From a virus, in the IMG/VR virus record IMGVR_UViG_3300042453_005804, positions 1-32,000 of that record: a stretch of DNA of 32,000 nt, one strand, 5' to 3'. The number at the start of each line of letters is the position of its first letter. The first letter of the stretch is position 1. A program made the position numbers and the translations under genes. Below are positions 7,959 to 31,691 of this stretch, piece by piece. The notes beneath the pieces were generated by a model. It was not told the DNA's origin. It did not search any database and saw nothing but the letters and a program-made list of their open reading frames with translations.

Positions 7959-7969
7959 GGGTGTCAGGA

Positions 7970-8269: not shown

Positions 8270-8286
8270 TGGTAAACCCGTTGGGT

Positions 8287-13024: not shown

Positions 13025-13032
13025 TCCGCCCA

Positions 13033-13068: not shown

Positions 13069-13284
13069 ATGAAGAACGGTACCAAGCTCTCCGCCGGTCA
13101 GATGATCGTCAAGTCCATGGACGCGGCCGGCCGTACGGTCGACGCAAAGCTCTTCGACTCAGGGGTCCGCGGTCTCAAGAAGCTCTTCGGACGGACCGAC
13201 GACCTCTTCAGCGTCGAGATGTACCTCGTCGACGAAGGCCTCGATCAGGACATCGCGTCCGACATCGTCTACAAACACTTCTGA
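13069..13284 (+). CDS. hypothetical protein, 71 aa
   Basis: Track ORF 13033..13284 trimmed by the 12 promoter codons (MQSSSSKGYIRT). Confidence 0.65.
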   Translation: MKNGTKLSAGQMIVKSMDAAGRTVDAKLFDSGVRGLKKLFGRTDDLFSVEMYLVDEGLDQDIASDIVYKHF

Positions 13285-13373: not shown

Positions 13374-14138
13374 ATGTCGCAGATGAAGATGAACGTCGGC
13401 CTCAAGTCCTGGAAGAACGGCACCAACATCCTCGACCTCGAGGTCCCCGCCCAGCTCGAGCGCACGGTTCGCACCGGCGTCAAGTTCTTCGACGATGCCA
13501 TGGGTGGTGAGGGCATGACGCCTTCCACGGCTCTCCTCTTCACCGGTACCCCCGGCGCCGGTAAGACGACTCTCAGCCTCCAACTCGCGGACGCCATCAC
13601 CGGCGCAGGCAACATCTGCCTCTTCAACACCGGCGAGGAGTCGCTCTTCCAGGTTCGCAAGGTGGCCAAGCGCCTCGAGATGAAGCACGGCTTCGTCGCC
13701 GGCCAGGACACGCTCGTCTCGGACATCCTCAAGCACGGCGATGAGCTGCGTAAGAAGAACCCCGGTAAGCAGGTCTTCATCGTCGTCGATTCGCTCCAGA
13801 CGCTGGACGACGGCAAGTATAAGGACGGCTTCACCAACTCGATGAGCCAGGTTCGCGCCACGGAGATGATCACCAACTGGTGCAAGGAGACGTTCGGCGT
13901 GGCCATCATCATCGGCCAGGTCACCAAGGGTGGCGAGTTCGCCGGCAAGCAACAGATCAAGCACACGGTGGATGCCCACGCCCACCTCTACATCGACGAC
14001 AAGAAGAACTCGGAGACCTTCGGTGAGCGCCTCTTCGAGGTGCAGAAGAACCGGTTCGGTTGCTCCGGCAAGACCTTCATCCTCGGCCTCGAGAAGAAGG
14101 GACTCTACGAGAAGGGCGTCATCAGCTACAACGACTGA
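13374..14138 (+). CDS. radA: RadA/Sms-like RecA-superfamily ATPase (core domain only)
   Basis: Walker A GTPGAGKTT, Walker B FIVVDSLQ, GQVTKGGEFAG, and the RadA-specific KNRFG motif. No N-terminal zinc finger or Lon-like C-domain. Confidence 0.8.
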   Translation: MSQMKMNVGLKSWKNGTNILDLEVPAQLERTVRTGVKFFDDAMGGEGMTPSTALLFTGTPGAGKTTLSLQLADAITGAGNICLFNTGEESLFQVRKVAKRLEMKHGFVAGQDTLVSDILKHGDELRKKNPGKQVFIVVDSLQTLDDGKYKDGFTNSMSQVRATEMITNWCKETFGVAIIIGQVTKGGEFAGKQQIKHTVDAHAHLYIDDKKNSETFGERLFEVQKNRFGCSGKTFILGLEKKGLYEKGVISYND

Positions 14139-15337: not shown

Positions 15338-16456
15338 ATGACCACCATGTCCGTCCGCACGTTCCTCAAGGTCTCCTCCAAGCTCCCCGTCGAGACCTCG
15401 GTCCTCCTCCGTGGCAACCACGGCATCGGTAAGTCCCAGGTCGTCCGCCAGGTGGCCAAGGGCTTCGGTCTCGAGGTCATCGACCGCCGCCTCTCACAGA
15501 TGAGCGAAGGCGACATGATCGGTCTCCCGTCCACGGATGGCGAGGTCACGCGGTTCAACCCGCCGGAGTGGTACAAGAACGCCTGCAAGAAGCCGGTGGC
15601 CCTGTTCCTCGACGAGCTCAACCGCGCCACCCCCGAGGTCATGCAGGCCGCCTTCCAGGTCGTCCTCGACCGTGAGCTCAACGGCTGGAAGCTCCACCCT
15701 CAGACGCGCGTCTACGCTGCCATCAACTCCTCGGCGGCCTACTCGGTCAACGAGATGGATCCGGCACTCCTCGATCGCTTCTGGGCCATCGACCTCACGC
15801 CGGACACGCAGGACTGGCTCACTTGGGCCAAGGAGTCCGGGGCCATCCACGAGAACATCATCACCTTCATCGCCGGCAACGAGAAGTGGCTCGACCCGCC
15901 CAAGGGCGGCGAGGCCTCGGCCGTCTCCCCCAGCCGCCGCAGCTGGGAACGTCTGTCCCACGCTCTGGTCTCCAACGGGGTCGCGGACCTCCCGGATGAC
16001 GCCCTCTTCTACCCGATGTGCCTCGGTTACGTCGGCACGGAAGCCACCATCGCCTTCCACGGCTACGTCAAGACCATCGACGCTCAGGTCACCGGTGAGG
16101 AGATCATCGAGGGCTACGCTAAGGTCAAGTCGAAGATCGCCAAGCTCGGTCAGGAGAAGCTCAACGTCTCCATCGAGAAGGTAGCCGACTACGTCACGAA
16201 GAACCTGAAGGTTCTCGACGACAACCAAGGTGCCAACCTCCGGGACTTCATGGGCGACCTCCCCGCGGAGCTCCGAGTGGCGGCCTGGTCGAAGCTCACG
16301 GCCGGCGGGGTCAACAACCTCGAGCTCGCCAAGTCGGTCCACAAGTGGTGTGTCAACCACATCCTCTCGGTCTTCGGTGTCGACAAGGGAGAGGCCGCAA
16401 AGGCCCTCACCCCGGCAGATACGAAGTCGGTGACGACGCCGAAGAAGAAGAAGTGA
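15338..16456 (+). CDS. MoxR/AAA_5-type AAA+ ATPase
   Basis: Walker A GNHGIGKSQ, Walker B LFLDELNRA, and the downstream EVMQAAFQVVLDRE sensor region typical of MoxR/CbbQ/GvpN-like ATPases. Confidence 0.8.
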   Translation: MTTMSVRTFLKVSSKLPVETSVLLRGNHGIGKSQVVRQVAKGFGLEVIDRRLSQMSEGDMIGLPSTDGEVTRFNPPEWYKNACKKPVALFLDELNRATPEVMQAAFQVVLDRELNGWKLHPQTRVYAAINSSAAYSVNEMDPALLDRFWAIDLTPDTQDWLTWAKESGAIHENIITFIAGNEKWLDPPKGGEASAVSPSRRSWERLSHALVSNGVADLPDDALFYPMCLGYVGTEATIAFHGYVKTIDAQVTGEEIIEGYAKVKSKIAKLGQEKLNVSIEKVADYVTKNLKVLDDNQGANLRDFMGDLPAELRVAAWSKLTAGGVNNLELAKSVHKWCVNHILSVFGVDKGEAAKALTPADTKSVTTPKKKK

Positions 16457-18238: not shown

Positions 18239-18314
18239 GCCTACGTAGCCCAGTGGCAGAGGCAGTCGACTCAAAATCGATACAGGGTGGGTTCGAATCC
18301 CACGGTAGGCACCA
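18239..18314 (+). tRNA. tRNA with anticodon CAA (Leu codon UUG) on a class-I, Met/Ile2-like body; CCA encoded
   Basis: Acceptor GCCTACG/GGTAGGC (7-66 G.G mismatch), anticodon arm GTCGA-CTCAAAA-TCGAT, 5-nt variable loop, T arm GTGGG-TTCGAAT-CCCAC, A73. Confidence 0.65.
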
Positions 18315-18321
18315 CACAACA

Positions 18322-18531
18322 ATGAAGCTCACAAGAAGACTTCACCCCCGTGCAGAACTGAAGATCAACACATACGTGGTTATCTCTCGTGCGGTGGAGG
18401 ATGGAATCCATCGCGGTTGGAATCGAGCATTCAAGTACACCGAATCGCCGAGCAGTGATACGATCAAATCAGAAATTGAAAAAGAGGTTCTCAATTCTCT
18501 GACAGAAGTCATCTCTTGGCCGGAAGATTGA
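18322..18531 (+). CDS. hypothetical protein, 69 aa
   Basis: Track ORF 18253..18531 trimmed, because its first 23 codons overlap the tRNA. ATG 18322 is 7 nt after the tRNA CCA. Confidence 0.55.
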   Translation: MKLTRRLHPRAELKINTYVVISRAVEDGIHRGWNRAFKYTESPSSDTIKSEIEKEVLNSLTEVISWPED

Positions 18532-18541
18532 TTATAGTTAC

Positions 18542-18617
18542 GGGTCCGTAACTCAATTGGTAGAGTAGTCGCCTTTTAAGCGATAAGTTGTGGGATCGTA
18601 CCCCACCGGACCCACCA
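18542..18617 (+). tRNA. tRNA-Lys(UUU), CCA encoded
   Basis: Acceptor GGGTCCG/CGGACCC, anticodon arm GTCGC-CTTTTAA-GCGAT, T arm GTGGG-ATCGTAC-CCCAC (unusual A54/T58 loop). Confidence 0.8.
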
Positions 18618-18759
18618 TCTCCAGGAACGACGAATACTGGAGACTTAGATATATCTTGCAGCTGTGGACCCCGGCGTCGCGAGGAAAGCTCCTATTATAA
18701 GCAGGTGACCTCCCGGGCCACACATCGGGACAGTAACCATCCTCCAAAAAATTTCGTCA

Positions 18760-18773
18760 TGCAACTAATCGCA
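18760..18773. promoter_or_regulatory. degenerate palindrome-family site TGCAACTAATCGCA
   Basis: Left half-site TGCAACTA is intact and the site is embedded in the inverted repeat TCATGC..GCATGA. Lies 9 nt upstream of variant promoter 18782. Confidence 0.35.
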
Positions 18774-18781
18774 TGACCCGC

Positions 18782-18816
18782 TTGTAAAACAAAAAAAGAA
18801 AGAATACCATATGATC
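18782..18816 (+). promoter_or_regulatory. TTGTAAAAC-variant promoter, leaderless
   Basis: TTGTAAAAC-N14-TACCAT-ATGATC-ATG. The -10/ATG segment closely matches promoter 17671-17706. Confidence 0.45.
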
Positions 18817-19068
18817 ATGACAAACAAGAACAACAGCACAATCACAGCATACGTCGTTCGTGAGGCCAACAGCCGCCGCTTTCTTACCCGGCCAACGTAC
18901 AGCGGTCGAGTTCAGGGCGTCTGGGGTACGTTCGATGAGGCAACGACATTCGACACCCGCGAGGAGGCGCAGTCATGCGCGTCGAACATCAACTATCGAC
19001 GCCCAGACGGTTACTCAGCCTACTTTGCAGAGGTTCGACCAGTAGAGCGCCCAACGCGTCGCCGCTGA
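18817..19068 (+). CDS. hypothetical protein, 83 aa
   Basis: Track ORF 18811..19068; start moved to the second ATG (18817), which fits the promoter spacing (+36). Confidence 0.6.
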   Translation: MTNKNNSTITAYVVREANSRRFLTRPTYSGRVQGVWGTFDEATTFDTREEAQSCASNINYRRPDGYSAYFAEVRPVERPTRRR

Positions 19069-19080
19069 TTGCTGTGACTG

Positions 19081-19112
19081 CCTCCACCTTGCAGGTCGGG
19101 GTGGAGGTTTTT
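19081..19112 (+). terminator. rho-independent terminator
   Basis: CCTCCACC (19081-88) pairs with GGTGGAGG (19100-07), followed by TTTTT (19108-12). Confidence 0.75.
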
Positions 19113-19183
19113 CCGGGGTAGCTCAGCGGCAGAGCTGGCGGCTGTTAACCGCCCGGTCGTTGGTTCGATCCCAACCCCCGGAG
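19112..19183 (+). tRNA. tRNA-Asn(GUU)
   Basis: Acceptor TCCGGGG/CCCCGGA, anticodon arm GGCGG-CTGTTAA-CCGCC, T arm GTTGG-TTCGATC-CCAAC, G73. Confidence 0.85.
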
Positions 19184-19188
19184 CCCAT

Positions 19189-19262
19189 GTCCTTGTAGCT
19201 CAGTTGGATAGAGCAGTTGCCTTCTAAGCAACGGGTCAGAGGTTCGAGCCCTCTCAAGGACG
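19189..19262 (+). tRNA. tRNA-Arg(UCU)
   Basis: Acceptor GTCCTTG/CAAGGAC, anticodon arm GTTGC-CTTCTAA-GCAAC, T arm AGAGG-TTCGAGC-CCTCT. Confidence 0.85.
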
Positions 19263-19267
19263 CTGAT

Positions 19268-19339
19268 TGGGGAATCGTTCAATGGTTAGGACAGCGGACT
19301 TTGAATCCGCGAATTGGGGTTCGAGTCCCTGTTCCCCAG
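19268..19339 (+). tRNA. tRNA-Gln(UUG)
   Basis: Acceptor TGGGGAA/TTCCCCA (U1-A72, typical of bacterial Gln), anticodon arm GCGGA-CTTTGAA-TCCGC, T loop TTCGAGT. Confidence 0.85.
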
Positions 19340-19382
19340 CCGCCGATACAAATCACGTAAAGGTTGTATAGTAGAAAAGCTT

Positions 19383-19457
19383 GCGGAGGTAACTCAATGG
19401 TAGAGTCCCAGTTTTCCAAACTGATTGTTGCGGGTTCGAGTCCCGTCCTCCGCTCCA
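19383..19457 (+). tRNA. tRNA-Trp(CCA), CCA end encoded
   Basis: Acceptor GCGGAGG/CCTCCGC, anticodon loop TTTCCAA, T arm GCGGG-TTCGAGT-CCCGT. Confidence 0.8.
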
Positions 19458-19460
19458 CAT

Positions 19461-19542
19461 GGGGTATTGTCCCGAGCGGCAAAGGGGGCTGACTGTAAAT
19501 CAGCTGTCAAAGACTTCGGTGGTTCGAGTCCATCATGCCCCA
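19461..19542 (+). tRNA. tRNA-Tyr(GUA), class II
   Basis: Acceptor GGGGTAT/ATGCCCC, anticodon arm GCTGA-CTGTAAA-TCAGC, long variable arm, T arm GGTGG-TTCGAGT-CCATC. Confidence 0.85.
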
Positions 19543-19547
19543 CTAGA

Positions 19548-19621
19548 GGAACGTTATATCAGTTGGTTAGATAGTCTCTCTGATAAGGAGAAGGTCGGCG
19601 GTTCGAATCCACCACGTTCCA
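19548..19621 (+). tRNA. tRNA-Ile(GAU)
   Basis: Acceptor GGAACGT/ACGTTCC, anticodon arm TCTCT-CTGATAA-GGAGA, T loop TTCGAAT. Confidence 0.85.
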
Positions 19622-19626
19622 CAAAT

Positions 19627-19713
19627 GGAAAGATGGCCGAGTGGCCTAAGGCACGTGCTTGCTAAGCACGCGTAGGTGAAAACTTACCGAAGGTTCGAAT
19701 CCTTCTCTTTCCG
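19627..19713 (+). tRNA. tRNA-Ser(GCU), class II
   Basis: Acceptor GGAAAGA/TCTTTCC, anticodon arm CGTGC-TTGCTAA-GCACG, long variable arm, T arm GAAGG-TTCGAAT-CCTTC. Confidence 0.85.
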
Positions 19714-19747
19714 CAAAAACTTATGTGAATGAATATATAGAAAGTAC

Positions 19748-19818
19748 GGGCCCGTAAGCTAATGGGAAACTGGCGCCTTTGCACGGCGCACTTGTGAGTT
19801 CGATTCTCACCGGGTCCA
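19748..19818 (+). tRNA. tRNA-Ala(UGC)
   Basis: Acceptor GGGCCCG/CGGGTCC with the G3-U70 Ala identity pair, anticodon arm GCGCC-TTTGCAC-GGCGC, T arm GTGAG-TTCGATT-CTCAC. Confidence 0.85.
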
Positions 19819-19834
19819 CTAACAAAGATTTTAC

Positions 19835-19923
19835 GCCAAAGTCCCTCAGTGGTCGAGAGGACCAGTTTTGTAAACTGGCGGGATAAAACCCCACCGTGAG
19901 TTCGAATCTCACCTTTGGCTCCA
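19835..19923 (+). tRNA. tRNA with anticodon UGU (Thr codon ACA) but a 17-nt variable region; CCA encoded
   Basis: Acceptor GCCAAAG/CTTTGGC, D arm CCTC/GAGG, anticodon arm CCAGT-TTTGTAA-ACTGG, variable CGGGATAAAACCCCACC, T arm GTGAG-TTCGAAT-CTCAC. Confidence 0.65.
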
Positions 19924-19924
19924 T

Positions 19925-20011
19925 GGAGAAGTGGCCGAGTGGTCGATGGCAACGGTTTAGAAAACCGTCGTGGGTGAAAGCCCACCGGGAGTTCGAATCT
20001 CTCCTTCTCCG
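19925..20011 (+). tRNA. class-II Ser-like tRNA with anticodon AGA (A34)
   Basis: Acceptor GGAGAAG/CTTCTCC, anticodon arm ACGGT-TTAGAAA-ACCGT, variable arm GTGGG-TGAAAG-CCCAC, T arm GGGAG-TTCGAAT-CTCTC, G73. Confidence 0.7.
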
Positions 20012-20020
20012 CAAATCTCG

Positions 20021-20760: not shown

Positions 20761-22068
20761 ATGTTCAGCCACACGGACACAGACTTCAACCTGGACCGGC
20801 ACCTCATCTCGTTCCTCCAGGACACGCCGTTCTTTGCGGAACTGAGCCGGCACATCCGGAAGACGCCCACCCTCGACATGCCCACGGCGGCGGTGGCCTT
20901 CGACCCGACGTACGACGACATCACGCTGTACTGGAACCCTGAGTTCTTCCGGCCGATGAGCGACCAGGAGATCCGTGGCGTCCTCACCCACGAGTTCTAC
21001 CACCTCATCTTCTGCCACCTCACGACCCGCCGCAAGAAGCCGGCGAAGATGTGGAACGTGGCGACGGACCTCGCCATCAACTCGATCATCAGCGGCCACA
21101 GCAACATGACACTGCCGGCCGGTTGCCTCATGCCAGGCGTCTTCCCTGCCGGTCCCGAAGGTCGCGAGTGGACGGCGGAGGAGAAAGCCGCCATGCCCAT
21201 CGCCCAACTCATCGCTGACTTCCCCAAGGGGCAATCCTCGGAGTGGTACTTCGAGAAGCTCAAGGACAAGGTTGAGGAGGAACGCAAGAAGGGTGACAAC
21301 GCCAAGGGCACCCCTCACCCCGACGGTGACCCCTTCGGCGGCCTCGACTCCTTCGACGACCACTCGGCCTGGGACGAGCTGACCGATGAACAGAAGGAGA
21401 TGGTCGCCTCCAAGGTCACCGGCATGGTGGAGAAGGCCACGAAGCACGCCGACTCCCAGGCGAACGGATGGGGCAACATCCCCTCCGAACTCCGCGAAGA
21501 GATCCGCCGCTCGGTCAGCAAGCTCGTCGACTGGCGCAACGTTCTCCGCCAATTCATCGGTAACATCGCCCGCGGTGAACGCACCACCACCATCAAGCGG
21601 ATCAACAAGCGCTACCCCTACATCCACCCCGGCGTCAAGCGCGGCTACGTCGCCAAGCTCCTCATCGCCATCGACCAATCCGGAAGCGTGGATGACCGCC
21701 AGCTCGCCCTCTTTTTCAACGAACTCGCCACCCTCACGAAGAAGGTCACGGTCACCATCCTCCCCTTCGACTGCGCAGCAGACCTCCGCGATGCCTTCGA
21801 ATGGAAGAAGGGAAGCAACGTGGACGCCAAGCGGGTCCGAGGCGGCGGAACGGACTTCAACGCCCCCACCAAGATCGTCAACGACCCGAAGAACCGGGGC
21901 AAGTGGGACGGCATGCTCATCATGACCGACGGTGAGTGCTCCGCCCCTGGCCCCTCCCGAGTCAAGCGCGGCTGGGTCATCTCCCCTGGCCACAAGCTGG
22001 AGTTCCCCACCAACGAGATCACCATCTCCCTCGATCCCACGACCCCCAAGTCCGGAGCCTGGCGATGA
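20761..22068 (+). CDS. VWA-domain protein with N-terminal HExxH metallopeptidase-like domain (MoxR partner type)
   Basis: HEFYHLIFCH zinc-binding motif in the N-half; MIDAS-type IAIDQSGSV (DxSxS) in the C-half. Confidence 0.8.
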   Translation: MFSHTDTDFNLDRHLISFLQDTPFFAELSRHIRKTPTLDMPTAAVAFDPTYDDITLYWNPEFFRPMSDQEIRGVLTHEFYHLIFCHLTTRRKKPAKMWNVATDLAINSIISGHSNMTLPAGCLMPGVFPAGPEGREWTAEEKAAMPIAQLIADFPKGQSSEWYFEKLKDKVEEERKKGDNAKGTPHPDGDPFGGLDSFDDHSAWDELTDEQKEMVASKVTGMVEKATKHADSQANGWGNIPSELREEIRRSVSKLVDWRNVLRQFIGNIARGERTTTIKRINKRYPYIHPGVKRGYVAKLLIAIDQSGSVDDRQLALFFNELATLTKKVTVTILPFDCAADLRDAFEWKKGSNVDAKRVRGGGTDFNAPTKIVNDPKNRGKWDGMLIMTDGECSAPGPSRVKRGWVISPGHKLEFPTNEITISLDPTTPKSGAWR

Positions 22069-23173: not shown

Positions 23174-23473
23174 TCAGCCCCTGTAGTATCCGAGGGGGCC
23201 CGGGGCGAATCCCGCCGCTTTGAGCGCTTCCTCCATCAGCTCGTCGAGCGCTAAATGCACGGCGTCCTGTACTTCGCCTGGGTCGCCACCGTACTCGACC
23301 TCGGCCGCACCTCGCAGGTGCTCGATGAAGACGGCCAACGCGGCCTTCACCTTCGTGATCTCTGCGTTGTCTGCGAGTGCACCCATACCGACTTCGTTGA
23401 GTTGCTTCGCTGCTGATGCCCTCTTTACTTCCTCTGCGATGATTGATCTTAGTTGGTTTGCTGTGAGTTTCAT
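23174..23473 (-). CDS. N-tag family protein, 99 aa
   Basis: Track ORF; N-terminus MKLTANQLRSIIAEEVKRA. Confidence 0.7.
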   Translation of the reverse strand: MKLTANQLRSIIAEEVKRASAAKQLNEVGMGALADNAEITKVKAALAVFIEHLRGAAEVEYGGDPGEVQDAVHLALDELMEEALKAAGFAPGPLGYYRG

Positions 23474-23506
23474 GTTGTGGATGTCCTTTCCCGTTGCGAG
23501 GGATGC

Positions 23507-23540
23507 TTATAGGTATCGTGGATATCTGGATTTGTCTTCC
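23507..23540 (-). promoter_or_regulatory. conserved 34-bp upstream block (second promoter type)
   Basis: 30/34 identical to 23943-23976. rc reads GGAAGACAAATCCAGATATCCACGATACCTATAA. Confidence 0.45.
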
Positions 23541-23563
23541 GCCCGAGCGGGATTTTGATGGTG

Positions 23564-23917
23564 TCAGAGGCCGTACATGTTGACGAGGTCTCGGGCGAGG
23601 TTGGTGGCTGATGAGGTGAGGGTGAGGCCTCTATCGAAGGCCGCCATATCGAGGAGGCGTTCCAGTTCCATGGTGGGGTTGATTGGGTTTGTGGTGTACC
23701 TGTAGCCGTAGGCTGTTTTCATGCCGACGATGGCTCTTGCCACGCCCCTGAAGTCTTCCGGCGTTCCTGTGCCTGCCATTGAGGCGATGTTCATTGCTAT
23801 ATCGGGGATGGCAGAGGGTGAGACGTCGAGGACCGTTTCGGTGAGGTGACGACGATGTGTCGCCTTCTGGACTTCTTCTCTGATGATTGATCTTAGTTGG
23901 TTGACGGTTAGTTTCAT
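23564..23917 (-). CDS. N-tag family protein, 117 aa
   Basis: Track ORF 23564..23974 trimmed to ATG 23917, giving MKLTVNQLRSIIREEVQKA. Confidence 0.7.
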   Translation of the reverse strand: MKLTVNQLRSIIREEVQKATHRRHLTETVLDVSPSAIPDIAMNIASMAGTGTPEDFRGVARAIVGMKTAYGYRYTTNPINPTMELERLLDMAAFDRGLTLTSSATNLARDLVNMYGL

Positions 23918-24020: not shown

Positions 24021-24701
24021 ATGAAGATACGGTTAGGGGAATTACGCAGGATTATTCGTGAGGCGGCTGAGGCGGCACAACTCAACACAGATGAGCTCGC
24101 GGCGATGTTGACTGAAAATGATGGTGGGGCCAAAGTGGTCGTGTATCATCCTGTACCCATTGAGAACATGATGCGTAAGTTGCCTGGAGATGTTGTTGAC
24201 CGGTCGCCTGAACTGATGGCGAAGTTGAAAGAGTATATGGTCGGTTGGGTCCAGGTGGTGAAGCCGAAGGATCCTTGTTGGAATGCGATGATGATTGCTT
24301 CCATTGCTGGTCCTGGCAAGCTGATGTATGGTATTGCCTATGCTTTGTCTCCCTCTGGTCTCTTGATCTCCGATCGCGATTCTATGACTGATGTTGCAGT
24401 CTCAGCCTGGCGTAATATGTCAACCAAGGGTAATCGTGACAAGAAAAAGTTAGATAATGTTGTTGAACCTGCGACTCCTGAACCCAATGACGATTGTGTC
24501 TTACGTCCGGAAGAATTCCTCAACTACGCCTACGAGGCTGAAGGTTGGGAGATGGGCGTCTTGGAGACGATGCATGATAACCATGAAGTTATGATCGCCA
24601 GAGCCACGAAAGGCGGCATACTGACGAGAGAAGAGGTAGAGAAAGTCTTGACAGAGGCAGGTCTATCTTATTGGCGAACTCGTTATAGAGCCGCTTGGTG
24701 A
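24021..24701 (+). CDS. N-tag family protein, paralogue group P (226 aa)
   Basis: MKIRLGELRRIIREAAE, then shared motifs CWNAMMI, GPGKLMYGIAYALSPSGLLISDR, PNDDC, EEFLNYAY. Confidence 0.8.
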   Translation: MKIRLGELRRIIREAAEAAQLNTDELAAMLTENDGGAKVVVYHPVPIENMMRKLPGDVVDRSPELMAKLKEYMVGWVQVVKPKDPCWNAMMIASIAGPGKLMYGIAYALSPSGLLISDRDSMTDVAVSAWRNMSTKGNRDKKKLDNVVEPATPEPNDDCVLRPEEFLNYAYEAEGWEMGVLETMHDNHEVMIARATKGGILTREEVEKVLTEAGLSYWRTRYRAAW

Positions 24702-24716
24702 TGAGGAGGTAACTGA

Positions 24717-25421
24717 ATGAAAATACGATTAGCAGAATTACGCCGGGTTATTCAGGAGGTTCTCCTCGAGGACAAGGAGTCTTTCCTCTCCTCCTCGGAA
24801 CCGATCATCAAGGGAAAGAGTCCTTCTGCACCACGAGACATCAAACGATTGTGGAATGCAGAAGCCGACCACAGGTTCTTCGCGGGCCTGACGAAGGTCC
24901 ATTGGGTTCGTCGTTATCAGGCCCTCAGGTTCTTTGACGAAGGCAGGGGACGTGATGAGGTGTCAGTTGGACTATACCTCCCCGGCAAGAAGGTATCACC
25001 CGCTTCGGCCTGGATGGAGCCTGGTGTTGGTGTGGTTCTTCAGGGTCGTGTCACCCTAGCCTCGAATGACATGGGGTCGATATGGACCGGATACGCCGAC
25101 GAGGCCCAACCGCAACATGCAAAAACATCCGGTGCGGTCCGACGCGGTACGATGATGAACATGAGCGCCCTCGAGGACTACGTCATTGATGCTGCGAGCT
25201 TCAAGGAGGCCGGATCTATGGGCAATGAGGGTGTGCTGGACAACTGGCGGCCTGTGGCCATCGTCTTGACAGATGTTGGGGCTTTCAATCCTGACGTAAT
25301 CAAATACGTCAAGAGTCTCGTGGATTACGGGAAGGCGTTCAAAGGAATAAGCGTTGTGGACCAGAACATGAAGTCATTGGATTTGGATGCGTTGTTGGAG
25401 GAGTTGTATCGTGAAGATTGA
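24717..25421 (+). CDS. N-tag family protein, 234 aa, unrelated body
   Basis: MKIRLAELRRVIQEVLLED; GAGGAGG SD 7 nt upstream. Confidence 0.8.
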   Translation: MKIRLAELRRVIQEVLLEDKESFLSSSEPIIKGKSPSAPRDIKRLWNAEADHRFFAGLTKVHWVRRYQALRFFDEGRGRDEVSVGLYLPGKKVSPASAWMEPGVGVVLQGRVTLASNDMGSIWTGYADEAQPQHAKTSGAVRRGTMMNMSALEDYVIDAASFKEAGSMGNEGVLDNWRPVAIVLTDVGAFNPDVIKYVKSLVDYGKAFKGISVVDQNMKSLDLDALLEELYRED

Positions 25422-26124
25422 ACTTGGTGAATTGCGGAAGATTATTAGAGAAGAAATCTTCGAACCCGAAAAAGGGTTAATTCCGACAAATTCCATTCGT
25501 TATGGTCACGCACCAATAGAATTCGTTAAATTGGCGCGGAAGTCCGATGATCGCATCAAAGAGTGGTTCATTCGTTCTGGTTGGGCTGAGAAGATACAAG
25601 GTTCGGCGCCTACCAATGACGGCGAAGTTACCAAGAGAGATCTTGAAAAGTTGTTGAAGTTGACGAGAGAAGCTACGCAGGAAGATGTAGCTTTTTCCAA
25701 GTTCGTGGATGACGAAAGCAACATAGCAGAATTGTTTCTTTCTTTTCTGTCTGAAAATGGATATGAGGAATCTTTGGAAGAGTACTACAGGATTGACAAT
25801 CAAACATTGTCATTGCTGTTTTATTTGAAAGAAGTCATTGATAGACCCAGGCCATATCAGCTGGCTCGTCATTTCGGGCTTCCAATCTATCCTCTTATAC
25901 GCACTGACGCCATGACAGCTTCATATCCTAGCGGTCATGCGTTGGTTGGGTTCGTAATGAGTGAGTATTATTCACGAAAATATCCTCGCTTGTCAATCCC
26001 CTTGAGATCTTTGGGGAAAAAAATTGCTTTTTCTAGAGAGGTCGTCGCGATCCACTATCCATCAGACACGAAAGTTTCTCGTTTGATATGCGACATTATT
26101 TTCCAAAACGATCTCCTCGAGTGA
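25411..26124 (+). CDS. PAP2-superfamily phosphatase carrying the N-tag
   Basis: All three PAP2 motifs: KEVIDRPRP (Kx6RP), PSGH, SREVVAIHYPSD (SRx5Hx3D). GTG start at 25411 with GGAGGAG 7 nt upstream gives (M)KIELGELRKIIREEIFE. Confidence 0.85.
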   Translation: MKIELGELRKIIREEIFEPEKGLIPTNSIRYGHAPIEFVKLARKSDDRIKEWFIRSGWAEKIQGSAPTNDGEVTKRDLEKLLKLTREATQEDVAFSKFVDDESNIAELFLSFLSENGYEESLEEYYRIDNQTLSLLFYLKEVIDRPRPYQLARHFGLPIYPLIRTDAMTASYPSGHALVGFVMSEYYSRKYPRLSIPLRSLGKKIAFSREVVAIHYPSDTKVSRLICDIIFQNDLLE

Positions 26125-26128
26125 ACGC

Positions 26129-26827
26129 TTAAAAATCCATTGCAATGTCGAAGGCCATGAATCCTGCATCGAGAAGCTCTGTCTCTATCTCTTCTCGGCG
26201 GCGACCCGTTGCATCGATCATCTTCAACGCTCTTTCATGATTATTGGTCAATCGATCAAGAAGTGCGGCTTCTCCTCCGGGTCCCTTATAGGCAGCATTG
26301 AGAAATTCTTCGTCATGTGATGTAAAGCAATCATCATTGGGATCTTCAGTGTGATGCTTGTCATGATGAGGATCCGTCCCAGGCTTTGGATGGCTGGCGT
26401 CGTCGAGAGGTAACATTTTGCCTGGACCTGCTTTCAATGAATATTTCTTCCACGCTGCTGTGGCCGAAGGTGACACACTTGACCTATCTGGCACGACCAA
26501 CCCCGTAGGGGACATGGCATAAGCAAGACCGTACATGATCTTCCCAGGTCCTGTGATGCCTCGAATCATCCAAGCGCCTCTGCATGGCGCTCCTCGAGGT
26601 TCGGATATCTGAACTATGCCTACGACTTTAAGAGTGTCGAGACGACGTCTACCCAACGCGGTTATCAACGCATCGACGTTATAGACCACTGCGGTACGTG
26701 AGGTTCCCGTGTCTGAGACCACCGCGGCCATGTCTGAGGTAATGAGATCGTCGAGGTTTTCAAACAAAGTAGGTCGCACGATTTCTTCTCTTATAATTTT
26801 TCTCAATTGTGACAACCTGATCTTCAT
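26129..26827 (-). CDS. N-tag family protein, paralogue group P (232 aa)
   Basis: MKIRLSQLRKIIREEIVR, then CRGAWMI, GPGKIMYGLAYAMSPTGLVVPDR, PNDDC, EEFLNAAY. Confidence 0.8.
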   Translation of the reverse strand: MKIRLSQLRKIIREEIVRPTLFENLDDLITSDMAAVVSDTGTSRTAVVYNVDALITALGRRRLDTLKVVGIVQISEPRGAPCRGAWMIRGITGPGKIMYGLAYAMSPTGLVVPDRSSVSPSATAAWKKYSLKAGPGKMLPLDDASHPKPGTDPHHDKHHTEDPNDDCFTSHDEEFLNAAYKGPGGEAALLDRLTNNHERALKMIDATGRRREEIETELLDAGFMAFDIAMDF

Positions 26828-26890
26828 TTCTCACCCTAGCTCGTCTATATAATTATCAATTACTTTGAAGCATATAATTATTGAGAGAAA

Positions 26891-27403
26891 ATGACAAGAA
26901 CTCAGATTAGAGGTGGGCAAATACAGGATGGGACAATAACTTCCGATGATTTAGCTGATAATGTTACATTTACCAACGTTACTGTATCTGGTTCTCTTGC
27001 GGTCTCAGGATCCACGATTGTAGACGGTCCTCTAGAGATAACTGGCGGTTCTTCGATGGCTTTTGAAATGACTGGTTCTTTTTCAATGACTGGCGGAGAT
27101 TTCATCATTGATGATGTCGGATCTTTGGTTGTGACAGGTTCTTTACTGGTAACTGGGGAGATATCGTTGAGCAGTGGTTCTAACGTTCCGATGGGGACAT
27201 TGATCTTAAATGGAAGCAATCCTGTCACGATATCCAATACTCTTGCAAAAACTTCTTCTATGATTTTTTTGACGAAACAGTCCGCAACGTACCCAGCTGG
27301 TACACCTCTTGTGTCTTCTAAGTCCAACGGCAGCTTTACGGTGGTTTCGAGCGCAGCAGGAGATTCTGATACAGCTTCTTATCTGATAATCAATCCAGCA
27401 TGA
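26891..27403 (+). CDS. Gly/Ser/Thr-rich beta-repeat protein, fibre- or structural-like
   Basis: N-terminus TRTQIRGGQIQDGTITSDDLADN followed by repetitive (V/I)TGS segments; TATAAT box 13 nt upstream of the start region. Confidence 0.55.
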   Translation: MTRTQIRGGQIQDGTITSDDLADNVTFTNVTVSGSLAVSGSTIVDGPLEITGGSSMAFEMTGSFSMTGGDFIIDDVGSLVVTGSLLVTGEISLSSGSNVPMGTLILNGSNPVTISNTLAKTSSMIFLTKQSATYPAGTPLVSSKSNGSFTVVSSAAGDSDTASYLIINPA

Positions 27404-27459
27404 GTATAACATTTTTGTTGTCGTGAAATAACTAGATCAAATGGTGTAGAATAAATTCC

Positions 27460-28026
27460 ATGGAACGACTAGATCGTATCATGGAAGCGTGTCAGTGGGT
27501 TAATTCAAAAGGCGTCGGAACTCGAGACGCATGCAAAGTAACGACTCGAGTAAGATGGGCGGACTGGGATAAGAAAGAATTTTCTCCTGCAATGTGCGTT
27601 CTTTGGTACTCTGAGACGAGAAAAGAAGGTAACGAATATGACACCTTTTGGATCCCCTCACCAGACATTTGGATTGCAAAAGTTGCTCATTATCTTGATG
27701 TTACGGAGGAATGGGTCAAGCAATTCGTCGATCAATGTTCGAATTCGTCGATTCGTCCCTGGCGATGGGATCTAAAAGTATCATTTTTGGAATCTGAAAG
27801 CGGAAAGGTTTGCAGACCCCAAATCGTTTGGGAAAAAGTCATGCTGCCAACGGTCGGCGTATTTCCTGAGTCTATCTTCTGCCTGAACAATTATGGAGAC
27901 AAAAATGAAGGTACGCAACAAATTCCGTACTGGACGAAAAATCCTCCGGTAGAATTATATGAGAGCAAGTTATTGTCTGCGGTGCGCGACTTGTTCGAAG
28001 CAAGAAAAGCTGCTGAGATAGATTGA
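27460..28026 (+). CDS. hypothetical protein, 188 aa
   Basis: Track ORF; followed by bidirectional terminator 28046-28078. Confidence 0.65.
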   Translation: MERLDRIMEACQWVNSKGVGTRDACKVTTRVRWADWDKKEFSPAMCVLWYSETRKEGNEYDTFWIPSPDIWIAKVAHYLDVTEEWVKQFVDQCSNSSIRPWRWDLKVSFLESESGKVCRPQIVWEKVMLPTVGVFPESIFCLNNYGDKNEGTQQIPYWTKNPPVELYESKLLSAVRDLFEARKAAEID

Positions 28027-28045
28027 AATAACAATCTTGACGTGC

Positions 28046-28078
28046 AAAGGCCTTGAATTCTTATTCAAGGCCTTTTTT
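28046..28078. terminator. bidirectional rho-independent terminator
   Basis: AAAGGCCTTGAA (28046-57) pairs with TTCAAGGCCTTT (28065-76), 7-nt loop, T run on plus and A run before. The right arm encodes the C-terminus of 28061..28285. Confidence 0.7.
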
Positions 28079-28285
28079 CTTTGCTAACATAGTTTGTTCA
28101 TTCCATTCTTCTATTTTCCAATTACACTGTTCTAACAATGACTCGAACGTGATTCGAACGAAATAATCTCTTACAATATTTGGTTTTATGTGTTTAAGAG
28201 CGTTATAGATGCACCACCACGCATCGTGAAGATCTTTATATGAGGGTTCTCTAGCATTTTGCTTGGATGTCTTTCGAATCTTCAT
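28061..28285 (-). CDS. hypothetical protein, 74 aa
   Basis: Track ORF. Confidence 0.5.
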   Translation of the reverse strand: MKIRKTSKQNAREPSYKDLHDAWWCIYNALKHIKPNIVRDYFVRITFESLLEQCNWKIEEWNEQTMLAKKKGLE

Positions 28286-28384
28286 AAAGAATATGTATGA
28301 ATCGTAACAAGAATGCGCGGCGTTGTCGATTAAAAAGCTGTATTTTACCGTTTGTTCGCCGAAACGTGAGTTCCTACATATTCT

Positions 28385-28594
28385 ATGCGATTTAAGAACG
28401 AGATTGCAGACCCTGCCACCTGGAGTAGCGAAGAAATTTCAGCCTTGTGGAAATTGATGGATCAATTAAGAGAAAAGTCAAAAGCAGAAGGTTGGGAGGA
28501 GGAATTTTTATCCAATGTGAAGGAATGGGCAGATTCCTGTGGAAAATTTCCTGTTGAATGGTTAAAAATGAGGAGAAAAGATTGGAAGCTGTGA
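28385..28594 (+). CDS. hypothetical protein, 69 aa
   Basis: Track ORF. Confidence 0.5.
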   Translation: MRFKNEIADPATWSSEEISALWKLMDQLREKSKAEGWEEEFLSNVKEWADSCGKFPVEWLKMRRKDWKL

Positions 28595-28604
28595 CTTTTA
28601 ACTT

Positions 28605-29435
28605 CTAGTTTTTTAATCCTCTTTTTGATATCGGCATTGCGTGATAAATTCTCATAAACAGCATAGATGCCACTTTTGACAGATAATCAGCAGCAAAGTC
28701 TGGAGACCATCCAAGATACTTCTGCACGTATCTGTTCAGCATCTCCATAGATTCTTTGTGATGATTCTTCAACCTGTTAACATCGATGGAAGCACCACCA
28801 TATGAGTAATCGAGGAACTCCTCTTTAGGACGTTGACCCTTGTGATTCCAGACTTCGCAGTCATCAGATGGATCATCAGGCGTTCTTCTTTTTTTCATAG
28901 GAAGAAGATTGTCGTCAAGTGGTTTTTTCTCAATGTCGCCGCGTTGACCTAAGGTCACATACATTGGTCTAGCATCATCACTTACCGCTGTTCTATCAGA
29001 TATGATTCTGCCTGAAGGTGAGAATTGCATGGCTATTATGTACAATAATGGTCCGTACTTCTCTTTTGCAAAGACATATTTGACGACCATGGCATCATTG
29101 CACCTATCAGGCGCTTTGTCTATAACAATCATGCCAACGATGCTATTTTCAGTGGCGTCAGCTATGGCCTGTGTGTCTCCTCCCTTACCTTCTTCTGTGT
29201 TCAAGCTGGCTAACACATTACCGACAAATACGTTTGTTTTATAGAGAACTATTGCAATTCCCGTATCTCCATATTTTTCAGTTAGAAGCCCTACGTCTTT
29301 TTTGGCAGCACTCGCAAGTTTTTCAGCGATTTTTTTTGCGTAATCTATTTGCTGAGCTGAAAGCTGCTTATCTTCTTCAGCCTCTTTTAAGAGTCTTTTG
29401 TAGATTTTCTCTAGAACGTAATTGCTTCTTTTCAT
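28605..29435 (-). CDS. paralogue group P protein (about 276 aa) with weak N-tag
   Basis: Shares CNDAMVV, GPLLYIIAMQFSPSGRIISDR, PSDDC, EEFLDYSY with 24021 and 26129. Start is either ATG 29435 (MKRSNYVLEKIYKRLLKEAEE) or TTG 29471. Confidence 0.7.
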   Translation of the reverse strand: MKRSNYVLEKIYKRLLKEAEEDKQLSAQQIDYAKKIAEKLASAAKKDVGLLTEKYGDTGIAIVLYKTNVFVGNVLASLNTEEGKGGDTQAIADATENSIVGMIVIDKAPDRCNDAMVVKYVFAKEKYGPLLYIIAMQFSPSGRIISDRTAVSDDARPMYVTLGQRGDIEKKPLDDNLLPMKKRRTPDDPSDDCEVWNHKGQRPKEEFLDYSYGGASIDVNRLKNHHKESMEMLNRYVQKYLGWSPDFAADYLSKVASMLFMRIYHAMPISKRGLKN

Positions 29436-29442: not shown

Positions 29443-29739
29443 TCACTTGTTCTTTTCGTCGTTTTTTTCAAATTTGTCTTTTACTCTCTTCAGTCTAGAG
29501 TCATCGTCGATGTAATTGTAAAGAGTTCTTGTAGAGACATCTAATGTTTCAGCCGCGTCAGAAACGGATCCTTGCTCATCTGCAAGAGCATTCCTAATCT
29601 CTATGTCAGCTGAACTAGGATCTACTATCTTTTTTGCCCCTATTTTCGTAATTCCTCCGCCCGGTTTTTTCTTCTCTAATATGATTTCTCTTATCAATTT
29701 CCTGAGAAGATTTTCCGTTACTTTTCCAGGTGAACTCAT
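29443..29739 (-). CDS. small Fis-type helix-turn-helix DNA-binding protein
   Basis: C-terminal GSVSDAAETLDVSTRTLYNYI matches the Fis/NtrC-type HTH pattern. N-terminus contains LLRKLIREIILE (tag-like). Confidence 0.65.
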   Translation of the reverse strand: MSSPGKVTENLLRKLIREIILEKKKPGGGITKIGAKKIVDPSSADIEIRNALADEQGSVSDAAETLDVSTRTLYNYIDDDSRLKRVKDKFEKNDEKNK

Positions 29740-31068: not shown

Positions 31069-31407
31069 TCATGTTTTTAACTTTGAGTAGAAATCTTGAG
31101 CATCTTTTCTTACATTAGGATTGTGATTTCGCCATGAACCTTTGTGGCCTATGTTCAAATGACACTCGTATTGATCCATACATAAGGTGATCAAGTTTTC
31201 GCTGTCTAGTTCGAAAGAAGGATCAATGTGTACTGGAATTATATGATGAACTTGTATTTTCTTTTTCTTTCCGCATGCCACACACGATTCATTAAGTTCT
31301 AAATGCGCTGCTCTTACCAGCGGCCATAATTTGTCTCTTCTAAGCTCCTTAGATTTTTCTCTAATGGTAGCAAAAAAAACATTAAAGGCATGCTTAAAAG
31401 TATTCAT
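31069..31407 (-). CDS. HNH endonuclease
   Basis: CVACGKKKKIQVHHIIP...NLITLC...CHLNIGH: Cys pairs plus the H-N-H spacing. Confidence 0.8.
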   Translation of the reverse strand: MNTFKHAFNVFFATIREKSKELRRDKLWPLVRAAHLELNESCVACGKKKKIQVHHIIPVHIDPSFELDSENLITLCMDQYECHLNIGHKGSWRNHNPNVRKDAQDFYSKLKT

Positions 31408-31691
31408 GACCTGTATATTGGGCTATGAGGAATCACGTGATAATCTTTTGTATACATGTCTGGAAAGACACCAACGTCGTCTGAAATTGGAGGAACTGGT
31501 CCGTAACAATCTTCGAGATCTACTTCTGGTTCTGAAAGATGCGATATAATTTTTTCATCTTCAGGATCAGCGATAGAACCCAACTGTTCTCTTGAAGTTA
31601 AATCTTGAGAAAGTACATTGCTGATGTGAGGTCCTTCTAACACCTCTCTGATTGTTTCTTTGATATACTCTCTCAAGATTTTGTTTTTCAT
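31404..31691 (-). CDS. hypothetical protein, 95 aa, weak N-tag
   Basis: Track ORF; MKNKILREYIKETIREVLEG; ATGA overlap with the HNH gene. Confidence 0.6.
   Translation of the reverse strand: MKNKILREYIKETIREVLEGPHISNVLSQDLTSREQLGSIADPEDEKIISHLSEPEVDLEDCYGPVPPISDDVGVFPDMYTKDYHVIPHSPIYRS

Follow-up and report, generated by a model that had tools for sequence, protein, structure and literature searches.

An undescribed, widespread protein family of uncultured tailed phages with a GNAT-like predicted fold and a conserved N-terminal tag

Our analysis of a 32,000-nucleotide stretch of viral DNA (IMG/VR record IMGVR_UViG_3300042453_005804, positions 1 to 32,000; hereafter the window) found that three of its genes belong to an undescribed and very widespread family of proteins from uncultured, mostly large, tailed phages, in which a core with a GNAT-like predicted fold follows a conserved N-terminal helix, the tag. 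Our best reading, which remains tentative, is that these proteins are GNAT-like acyltransferases that would be packaged in the phage head and delivered by injection to the host; we infer that they bind CoA, act as catalysts and are packaged, cleaved and injected. The features on which the argument is built are collected in Table 1.

Table 1. Genes, tags and conserved sites of the family and of its tagged neighbours in the window.
Feature	Position	Strand	Basis
Pair of small genes with tags, 23174-23473 and 23564-23917, start MKLT(A/V)NQLRSII(A/R)EE	23174..23917	-	
Paralogue 1, 226 aa, long-branch family member	24021..24701	+	ORF; family HMM E 1.8e-78; AF2 pLDDT 92.3 (full length)
Tag of paralogue 1, MKIRLGELRRIIRE, amphipathic helix, end I-R-E then A	24021..24062	+	
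Residues 24-176 of paralogue 1, predicted GNAT-like core	24090..24548	+	AF2 pLDDT 94.8; Foldseek against the PDB
Cys86 of paralogue 1, first of the co-varying Cys pair	24276..24278	+	conservation, covariation
GPGKLMY (G97-Y103) of paralogue 1, Gly-rich loop and helix start	24309..24329	+	model, conservation
Asp118-Arg119 of paralogue 1, strand end after the Gly-loop helix	24372..24377	+	96% and 99% conserved
T-x-x-A-x-x-x-W of paralogue 1, residues 123-130	24387..24410	+	conservation, hhalign path
Asp157-Asp158-Cys159 (DDC) of paralogue 1; Cys159 second of the Cys pair	24489..24497	+	
Unrelated tagged neighbour, MKIRLAELRRVIQE...	24717..25421	+	homologues adjoin family members in L001 and L019
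Tagged PAP2-type phosphatase, GTG start, VKIELGELRKIIREE, 237 aa	25411..26124	+	Pfam PAP2 7.8e-9
Paralogue 2, 232 aa	26129..26827	-	ORF; BLASTP; family HMM
Tag of paralogue 2, MKIRLSQLRKIIRE	26786-26827	-	
Sites of paralogue 2: Cys; DR; DDC	26582-26584; 26483-26488; 26327-26335	-	
Paralogue 3, 276 aa from ATG	28605..29435	-	ORF; BLASTP; family HMM; gene calls
Tag of paralogue 3, MKRSNYVLEKIYKRLLKE	29382-29435	-	
Sites of paralogue 3: Cys; DR; DDC	29100-29102; 28992-28997; 28857-28865	-	
Tagged small HTH (Fis/HTH_8-like) protein	29443..29739	-	domain match, tag
Small gene, tag-like start MKNKILREYIKETIRE	31404..31691	-	

Pairwise BLASTP of the three paralogues gave E values of 2e-38 (36% identity, over the full length), 3e-19 (28%) and 6e-13 (28%), and their similarity is therefore far above chance. 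A preliminary description of this DNA had aligned the three genes over about 150 residues; the homology holds, but the span is actually about 190-220 residues, and all five of the conserved blocks listed there were found in all three proteins: C-x2-A-(W/M); G-P-G-K-(L/I)-M-Y in paralogues 1 and 2 or K-Y-G-P-L-L-Y in paralogue 3, followed by S-P-(S/T)-G...D-R; L-D-(D/N); D-D-C; and E-E-F-L-(N/D)-x-x-Y. An HMM built from the family, compared with the six-frame translation of the window, matched exactly these three copies, and independent gene calls in related contigs gave identical boundaries, with products of 227, 232 and 276 aa. An alternative upstream TTG start of paralogue 3 lies at 29471.

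The preliminary description could match the blocks to no known family, and sequence searches of Pfam, NCBIfam, PHROGs and the PDB indeed returned no match to the family, 145 members scanned singly included, as did tblastn against 50,697 phage genome records. In metagenomes the family comprises 1,581 clusters at 50% identity (E<=1e-3), or 176 at E<=1e-30. Loci carry 2-5 copies, and the family core can occur two to three times within single proteins of 1,300-1,370 residues. The protein P0090 unites three family cores, two Pfam GNAT domains and an HNH domain in one polypeptide, and its gene is flanked by an Acb2/Tad1-hairpin gene and by one that matches DarA_C weakly; at another locus, L003, the neighbours of the family gene encode a tail-fibre-like protein and a baseplate-wedge protein. 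Three diverged copies in one genome had earlier been taken to suggest diversifying selection, which our results do not support: the dN/dS of orthologues was 0.03-0.22 in each of the three lineages, so selection is purifying, and the copies are not recent duplicates but represent three ancient subfamilies, which occur jointly in related phages. Among the three paralogues themselves dN/dS is not computable because dS is saturated. A tempting inference about multi-copy phage 'effector' paralogues is thereby corrected, since those studied here are old and functionally constrained rather than fast-diversifying.

The AlphaFold models are confident (pLDDT 92-95). When the core model was compared with the PDB by Foldseek, about 40 of the best 50 matches were GNATs, among them NatD, NAT9, YhbS, GCN5, EctA, KKT23, AAC, RimJ, GNA1 and Elp3, and the resemblance that the preliminary description had called faintly GNAT-like thus finds some support at the level of the predicted fold. 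The individual matches are weak (TMq 0.3-0.41; for the best, E 0.064, probability 0.63 and TM 0.41), with no single significant one among the PDB results for this model; in BFVD one unnamed relative ranks first and is followed by many viral GNATs. None of the 145 members matched any Acetyltransf_* Pfam model at E<=10, the three paralogues gave no such match, hhalign against a small GNAT profile gave a probability below 1%, and a PDB profile search returned no GNAT. In the best hhalign path, which is not significant, motif A aligns with the Gly loop and motif B with S/T-x-x-A-x-x-x-W/Y. In the model of paralogue 1 the loop lies between a strand (residues 90-96) and a helix (99-109), with G97 (88% conserved) and G99 (92-93%) at the strand-to-helix junction and Y103 (98%) after them, and we propose that GPGKLMY corresponds to motif A of the GNATs, the loop that binds pyrophosphate. 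Likewise, in a register set by inspection and by the non-significant hhalign path, we propose T-x-x-A-x-x-x-W as the equivalent of the motif B sequence N-x-x-A-x-x-x-Y; the family has S/T123-x-x-A126 (96%)-x-x-x-W130 (98%) at this position, and paralogue 3 reads S-D-D-A-R-P-M-Y. A P-loop NTPase was also considered and rejected, the loop reading G-x-G-(x-G)-K/P and lacking the S/T that would follow in the Walker A motif GxxxxGK[ST].

Conservation was measured in 169-247 diverse relatives, where C86, A89, G99, Y103, D118, R119, A126, W130, D145, T152, D157, C159, L167 and Y171 are 88-99% conserved; in both branches of the family D118, R119, W130, D145, D157 and Y171 reach 94-99%, and the values for D158 (about 95%) and H188 (about 90%) refer to the long branch only. 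Both Cys are present in 226 of 247 members and at least 14 have lost them jointly, while retaining DR, DD and W. Since the two Cys are kept or lost together they appear to be a structural pair and not a nucleophile, and a structural staple, formed by a disulfide or a metal, is a likelier role for Cys86-Cys159 than catalysis. D118, R119 and D157/D158, for which a catalytic or metal-binding role had been suggested at the outset, persist when the Cys are lost, as does W130.

Nearly all members begin with an amphipathic helix of 14-20 residues that ends in (L/I/V)-x-E and is followed by S, A or G. Among 169 members the Glu is 92% conserved, 153 of the 155 with this Glu carry L, I or V at P3, and S, A or G occupies P1' in 87%; one family member, P0190, has no tag. 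The helix of paralogue 1 is modelled apart from the domain (pLDDT 52-66, dropping under 50 for residues 16-18). The tag is conserved as a peptide and not as DNA, with the consensus hydrophobic-x-x-hydrophobic-R-R-(L/I)-(L/I)-x-E, then S/A/G, and its flavour is uniform inside one genome and different between genomes. Every internal repeat of P0090 retains L-x-E-(S/A/V)-A-K-G, and the tag-end pattern is also kept ahead of the internal repeats of P0109. Judged from its sequence, the end of the tag fits the pattern of a prohead-protease site, (L/I)-x-E and then the mature chain. It resembles in this the T4 capsid-targeting sequence (CTS), MKTYQEFIAE and then A in one T4 peptide, which likewise ends in (L/I)-x-Glu before a small residue, and by this analogy the tag may load proteins into the phage head for delivery to the host.

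The tag is not confined to the family. Between 23.1 and 31.7 kb the window has nine tagged ORFs, which include the PAP2 and HTH proteins and others to which no function was assigned, so that the interleaving with other tagged genes reported in the preliminary description is real and extends to unrelated neighbours. Homologues of the tagged neighbour at 24717..25421 adjoin family members in L001 and L019. Tagged arrays occur elsewhere: in L016 eight of the 11 genes of one run start with a tag, and L015 has at least eight tagged genes. The contigs of tag-bearing tailed phages range from about 70 to 300 kb. The small HTH protein is fused to the paralogue-3 type in the relatives P0101, L001 and L004. 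In one array a zeta-toxin-like protein is tagged, and nuclease and sulfotransferase genes alongside it are untagged.

If our preferred reading is correct, each protein would consist of two modules, a detachable N-terminal helix and a globular domain of about 200 residues with a very diverged GNAT-like alpha/beta fold at its core. As with the T4 capsid-targeting sequence, the tag would dock the protein into the assembling prohead, and a prohead protease would then clip it off. The Gly-rich strand-to-helix loop (G97-x-G99...Y103) could hold acyl-CoA, from which the acyl group would be passed to a positively charged acceptor in a putative acidic pocket made up of D118/R119, D145, D157/D158, Y171 and W130 (Y in paralogue 3), and Cys86-Cys159 would pin the long beta6-beta7 loop against the sheet. 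The three subfamilies would enter the host with the DNA and modify different targets, either for takeover or for counter-defence.

Family genes are often found among small accessory, DNA-repair and chaperone genes and not among head genes, several of their loci have the appearance of accessory regions, not of structural modules, GroEL and DnaJ-like genes lie nearby in the window and in L003, and stretches of about 20 kb around family genes contain no prohead protease, portal or capsid gene. This context favours an unpackaged enzyme, of a GNAT-like or another cofactor-binding kind, that works in the cytoplasm of the infected cell, its helix serving some other shared purpose, such as docking to a phage chaperone, a degradation or timing signal, oligomerisation or localisation. 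We consider this unlikely, however, as the near-invariant Glu, the L/I/V at P3 and the small P1' are kept before internal repeats at which the helix is otherwise lost, as would be expected of a cleavage site more than of a docking helix, and as the flavour of the tag is uniform across the unrelated cargo of a genome, as in the T4 CTS. The T4 internal-protein genes, moreover, also lie outside the head gene cluster.

A packaged but non-catalytic protein, in the manner of the paralogous internal head or 'inner body' families of phiKZ and SPN3US, would use the GNAT-like fold as a scaffold only, and its conserved residues for folding, metal binding or protein-protein contacts. Several paralogues of about 30% identity per genome with a propeptide-like tag recall SPN3US gp53/gp54 (PMC5694885), tandem triple repeats in one polypeptide are less usual in enzymes than in modules with a binding or structural role, and the Cys pair behaves structurally. 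Still, scaffolding alone hardly explains some 15 polar or aromatic positions that are 90-99% conserved in proteins otherwise 25% identical, or the presence among them of a Gly-rich loop between strand and helix, of the kind usual in phosphate binding, and the mature paralogues are acidic to neutral (pI 5.0, 5.4 and 7.1), unlike basic DNA-condensing internal proteins; a purely structural role is distinctly unlikely in our view. It is highly improbable that the fold is another nucleotide-binding one (P-loop NTPase, kinase or Rossmann-like) and that Foldseek returned the GNATs as an artefact, through a generic beta-alpha-beta sandwich. Although G-P-G-x-G-K is superficially like adenylate-kinase-type P-loops and every GNAT match has a TM below 0.5, the Lys is just 67% conserved, is replaced by Pro across the short branch (GWGPLLY) and is not followed by Ser/Thr, the spacing is GxGxG and not GxxxxGK[ST], and the fold matches include no P-loop or Rossmann protein, with one superfamily making up about 80% of the best 50.

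Taking the packaged acyltransferases as one part of a larger system, it is possible, and we suggest it with more reserve, that the tag is a general, undescribed cargo-loading signal of a broad radiation of uncultured tailed phages, the family being its commonest cargo. Arrays of up to about ten different enzymes, PAP2 phosphatase included, together with HTH regulators, would be packed into the capsid and injected, in a modular 'plug-and-inject' effector system whose tag co-evolves with the head scaffold of each phage and in which the family would be a new Cys-stapled clade of GNAT-like acyltransferases with 2-5 copies per genome. If our preferred reading is right, a family of more than 1,500 clusters at 50% identity that is invisible to Pfam, NCBIfam and PHROGs would gain a GNAT-like fold, together with a candidate for the active site and an activity that can be tested, and the tag would become both a portable loading peptide for engineering and a simple sequence rule for predicting the virion-delivered effectors of uncultured large phages, a prediction that otherwise needs virion proteomics of cultured phages.

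The closest parallel to the tag is the CTS of T4, a propeptide of 10-20 residues common to diverse internal proteins and removed by gp21 (PMC5694885, PMC3012670). As in our family, a short N-terminal amphipathic peptide is found on unrelated proteins of one phage (IPI, IPII, IPIII and Alt), and enzymes and counter-defence proteins are among the cargo (PMC3012670, PMC5694885). The two peptides share no sequence similarity, packaging and cleavage of the family are predictions from sequence, the number of tagged genes per genome is far greater here (eight in one 11-gene run) and the tag is spread over a very wide set of uncultured phages. Giant phages offer a second parallel, since the SPN3US gp53/gp54 and phiKZ gp93-type proteins also form several paralogues of about 30-35% identity per genome (PMC5694885), and gp53 and gp54, which are 34% identical, share an N-terminus that contains the protease motif (PMC5694885, PMC3012670), the paralogues' N-termini remaining conserved with the prohead-protease motif in them (PMC5694885). 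Their propeptides, however, are mostly longer than 100 residues, tblastn against the phage genome records found no homology to them, and no enzyme-like conserved motifs have been reported for them.

The large multidomain relatives recall instead the polyvalent proteins (Iyer, Burroughs, Anand, de Souza and Aravind 2017) and the Dar proteins of P1, in that family cores lie within proteins of 1,300-1,370 residues and that those of P0090 are joined to GNAT and HNH domains, beside an Acb2/Tad1-like gene and a gene that weakly matches DarA_C. Polyvalent proteins are predicted to be packaged and injected, and phage ART+GNAT polyvalent proteins in particular to be packaged in the capsid (PMC5512222). 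The family domain is not among the domains named in the GNAT passages of that paper (PMC5512222), and in the window, unlike in polyvalent proteins, it is a stand-alone tagged protein. From the GNAT superfamily itself (NatD/Naa40, 4ua3 and 4u9w; RimI/RimJ; GCN5) the family is set apart by the lack of sequence or profile similarity and TM values of just 0.3-0.41, by a modelled topology with two strands rather than three between alpha1/alpha2 and the Gly loop and an extra N-terminal hairpin, by a motif A whose Q/R position is not conserved and a Trp for the usual motif B Tyr in most members, by its own invariant D-R, L-D-D, T...D-D-C and Cys pair and, in the long branch, by two additional C-terminal helices. 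What the two would share, on the predicted fold and the proposed register, is a mixed alpha/beta sandwich in which a strand, a Gly-x-Gly loop and a helix occupy the putative position of motif A, followed by a strand and a helix with S/T-x-x-A-x-x-x-W/Y at that of motif B, and in P0090 the family cores stand in one polypeptide with two bona fide GNAT domains.

The three window genes in which the preliminary description had noted shared blocks are paralogues, and independent gene calls on related contigs place their boundaries identically. Pairwise BLASTP among them gives E values of 2e-38, 3e-19 and 6e-13 (identity 36%, 28% and 28%), and all five blocks are present in the three ORFs; the proposed homology therefore holds, although the alignments cover nearly the entire proteins and not some 150 residues. 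A family HMM run against the six-frame translation found exactly three copies in the window. That no known family could be assigned is also borne out: searches of Pfam, PHROGs, NCBIfam and PDB sequences gave no match with single sequences or with profiles of 3, 34 and 145 sequences, and 145 members scanned one by one contained no Pfam domain. Among 50,697 phage genome records, tblastn found no match to the three paralogues and two members of a shorter branch, nor did a query with the tag peptide (a short N-terminal amphipathic helix ending in (L/I/V)-x-E, then S/A/G). The proteins are named 'hypothetical protein' in every source, and full-text searches with tag peptides and comparable targeting signals found no published description of the family or of the tag. 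In metagenomes, a word-indexed search recovered 37 unnamed relatives, and when 1.84 billion representatives were scanned in full with the HMM, 1,581 clusters passed E<=1e-3, 737 of them also E<=1e-10 and 176 E<=1e-30; profile searching brought in the other branch, whose members are shorter (about 200 aa) and carry the motif 'GWGPLLYDVAIE...'.

Coordinates of the paralogues and of other annotated features of the window
Feature	Position	Strand	Product length	Remarks
Paralogue 1	24021..24701	+	226 aa	ORF
Paralogue 2	26129..26827	-	232 aa	ORF
Paralogue 3	28605..29435	-	276 aa	ORF
Tail-fibre-like protein	26891-27403	+	170 aa	K1-lyase_C (Pfam 3.2e-9; PHROG polysaccharide deacetylase C-terminus)
tRNA genes	18239-20012 and 9835-9909			n=13, twelve in 1.8-kb array
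MoxR-type AAA_5 ATPase	15338-16456
DUF2201 metallopeptidase/VWA protein	20761-22068
Sir2-family protein	8960-9802	-		4.7e-23
dCMP/cytidine deaminase	4314-4724	-
KaiC/RadA-like ATPase	13374-14138	+

Contigs carrying relatives come from IMG/VR and metagenomes, those of lakes repeatedly among them, and measure 38-298 kb. On one of 298 kb the family gene is flanked by a baseplate-wedge gene (phrog_13163, E 1.5e-34) and a gene for a tail-fibre-like protein; the carriers are therefore uncultured tailed phages, many of them large. Multiple copies are the rule, with three in the window and in contig L002, two in L001, L004, L005, L007 and L016, and five in L015. The three window subfamilies co-occur again in related phages, where the paralogue-3 type is often fused with the adjoining HTH protein. 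Diversifying selection, suggested earlier, is unsupported at the gene level. Since dS is saturated between the three paralogues, the proposed comparison among them was made on orthologues instead, for which the Nei-Gojobori method gives dN/dS of 0.13 and 0.22 (paralogue 1), 0.03 and 0.09 (paralogue 2) and 0.05 (paralogue 3): each paralogue is under purifying selection.

Across 247 members of both branches, fourteen positions are 88-99% conserved (C86, A89, G99, Y103, D118, R119, A126, W130, D145, T152, D157, C159, L167 and Y171, numbered as in paralogue 1). The window proteins have exactly two cysteines each, which are the conserved pair. Both positions are Cys in 226 of the 247 members and both are replaced in at least 14, while a single replacement occurs in at most five, some of which are alignment slips. 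Because the replacing residues vary, this pattern suggests several independent losses. The invariant Cys, Asp-Arg and DDC residues had been thought catalytic or metal-binding; for the cysteines a catalytic role is the less likely one, as the pair co-varies and is lost jointly. D118, R119, W130 and D157/D158 are retained in Cys-less members. We thus read Cys86 and Cys159 as a probable structural staple (a disulfide or a shared metal) rather than a nucleophile, and the acidic and aromatic set as a putative functional site. P-loop and PD-(D/E)xK readings of the motifs were both rejected for their spacing and conservation.

AlphaFold2 models the full-length protein with pLDDT 92.3 and pTM 0.85, and the core (residues 24-176) with pLDDT 94.8. 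For the full-length model, Foldseek found no PDB match at E<0.001, the best few being GNATs amid noise, and BFVD returned one unnamed viral protein as a good match (E 6.6e-9, TM 0.65) and, ranked after it, a series of viral GNATs. With the core model, GNAT acetyltransferases make up about 40 of the 50 best PDB matches, among them NatD/Naa40, NAT9, YhbS, GCN5, EctA, KKT23, AAC(6'), RimJ, GNA1, Elp3, NAGS and Eis, aligned over 150-160 columns, each weakly (E 0.06-3, probability <=0.63, TMq 0.30-0.41). Such dominance of one superfamily among the matches is not due to chance, but the scores are insufficient to establish GNAT membership. The sequence has two features that would fit GNATs: the near-invariant G97-x-G99...Y103 sits exactly at the junction of strand 90-96 and helix 99-109, the place taken in GNATs by the pyrophosphate-binding loop (motif A), and the next strand ends in D118-R119 and leads to a helix S/T123-x-x-A126-x-x-x-W130 (Tyr at the W130 position in paralogue 3) with the spacing of motif B (N-x-x-A-x-x-x-Y). 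The best hhalign path between the core and a small GNAT profile, built of five sequences and the two Pfam-verified GNAT domains of the multidomain protein P0090, has the same motif A/B register and is not significant (probability 0.4%). Against membership speaks the predicted sheet, in which only two strands precede motif A where GNATs have three, together with an extra N-terminal hairpin. The earlier impression of a faint GNAT likeness thus holds for the predicted fold and not for sequence: the family may be GNAT-like, yet no profile method links it to GNATs (hhalign below 1%, the family HMM, and 145 members against Pfam), and P0090's own GNAT domains go undetected by the family HMM.

An amphipathic helix opens nearly every family member. 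Among 169 long-branch (window-type) members, 92% have Glu in the column that corresponds to Glu14, mostly at residue 14-20; L/I/V stands two residues ahead of it in 153 of 155, and S/A/G directly after it in 87%. The helix stands apart from the domain in the AlphaFold2 model, joined by a low-confidence linker. As had been noticed, the paralogues are interleaved with other tagged genes: the same type of N-terminus occurs on an unrelated PAP2 phosphatase, an HTH protein, the product of the gene at 24717 and three small ORFs. Tag codons differ between genes, so that conservation is at the peptide level and a DNA-level recombination or regulatory site is ruled out; no clear shared promoter motif was found 5' of the tagged genes. 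On other contigs, tagged genes form arrays. In L016 (5392-12358), 8 of 11 co-directional genes start (M/V)-x-(L/H)-LR(E/Q)Y(I/M)R-x-L(L/I)-x-E (MKLLREYIRELLxE-type), and in L015 (1581-13079) at least eight genes, all five family copies among them, carry LLREAIRQILRE; the flavour of the tag is uniform inside one genome and different between genomes. SNase, sulfotransferase and HAD genes and a tagged zeta-toxin-like gene lie near the L016 array.

Family cores also occur in large multidomain proteins. P0090 (1,367 aa) has three of them, the two GNAT domains and an HNH domain; its N-terminus matches Tpt1/ART at noise level only (E 0.77). All three internal repeats keep 'L-x-E-(S/A/V)-A-K-G', some 58 residues N-terminal to the core Cys, and a second such protein, P0109, keeps 'L-x-E-S'-type sites. 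On its 124-kb contig, the P0090 gene (L018 9603-16566) has on one side an Acb2/Tad1-hairpin gene (PF24729, a family of anti-CBASS/Thoeris sponges) and on the other a gene that matches DarA_C weakly, surroundings that suggest a counter-defence island. Phage polyvalent proteins with ART and GNAT domains are predicted to be capsid-packaged effectors (PMC5512222).

The rest of the window has features of its own. About 33 copies of a ~40-nt element, GTGCAAAGT-N13-15-GGTA(T/G)A...CC-ATG, lie in 1-20800 (e.g., 3149-3190, 9800-9841, 12286-12325 and 13032-13071), each with a start codon at its end; copies left of ~12.2 kb are on the minus strand and those right of it on the plus strand, with none in the 23-32 kb tagged-gene region. 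The core 9-mer is present 36 times where 6.1 would be expected, a count reached in 0 of 100 shuffles. The element resembles an early-type promoter that sits right at the start of near-leaderless genes and drives divergent transcription. The Sir2-family, deaminase and KaiC/RadA-like genes are all in this promoter-dense left half. MoxR-type ATPases and VWA proteins are a known partnership; here the tRNA array separates their genes, and on a related contig the gene caller took an antisense ORF of the VWA gene instead. Compared with phage genome records, 13-23 kb has a sole match, a 70-nt tRNA-like stretch of Lak megaphages. G+C is 0.61-0.63 at 1-4 kb and 21-23 kb and drops to 0.37-0.40 at 28-32 kb, with about 0.50, 0.46 and 0.39 around paralogues 1, 2 and 3. 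Set beside its relatives, the window is a patchwork of cassettes, some shared and others replaced; L002, for example, is without 24761-26128, and paralogue 2 is inverted in L004. Paralogues 2 and 3 have the tail-fibre-like gene between them; its product bears 'IxDGxITxxDLA' as an N-terminal motif and is without the tag. The 24717-type gene runs 11 nt into the next tagged gene, past its GTG or ATG start, with the next tag directly after (24717-25421 / 25411-26124 in the window; 7620-8324 / 8314-8988 in L001), an overlap kept although the window has PAP2 downstream and L001 a family member. Homologues of its product also lie near family genes in L019 (IKRLWNAEADHRF motif).

Taken as a whole chain, our preferred but tentative reading, which we place somewhat short of an even chance, is that these proteins are tag-loaded, head-packaged and injected GNAT-like acyltransferases. 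The tag would load them into the phage head, from which they would be injected into the host; their acceptor pocket would be acidic and so suited to cationic substrates, and the three constrained subfamilies would act on different targets. The same enzyme could instead work in the cytoplasm, the helix having a chaperone, timing or oligomerisation role. We consider this less likely. Outward from the window, within about 20 kb around each match, no head, protease or portal genes were found, only accessory genes, GroEL (just outside the window) and a DNA glycosylase, and other family contexts are accessory-gene regions without head genes. A little less probable again is a non-catalytic internal head protein on a GNAT-like scaffold. 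A different nucleotide-binding fold seems improbable. We reject a P-loop reading of the glycine-rich segment: its Lys is only 67% conserved, is Pro in the short branch and has no Ser/Thr after it.

The anatomy of the tag is that of the capsid-targeting sequence (CTS) of T4, exemplified by the peptide MKTYQEFIAE↓A, with prohead cleavage following the rule L/I-x-E. It matches the T4 CTS on every sequence criterion examined, from which we infer, by analogy, that packaging and cleavage may occur here. Otherwise diverse internal proteins of T4 have the CTS in common, an N-terminal propeptide of 10-20 residues that the prohead protease cuts off (PMC3012670, PMC5694885). A close published parallel to tagged family paralogues is found in SPN3US, whose paralogues gp53 and gp54 are 34% identical and have an identical N-terminus with the protease motif (PMC5694885). 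The family would thus be placed as a GNAT-like enzyme and as CTS-tagged phage cargo, both of them kinds that are already known.
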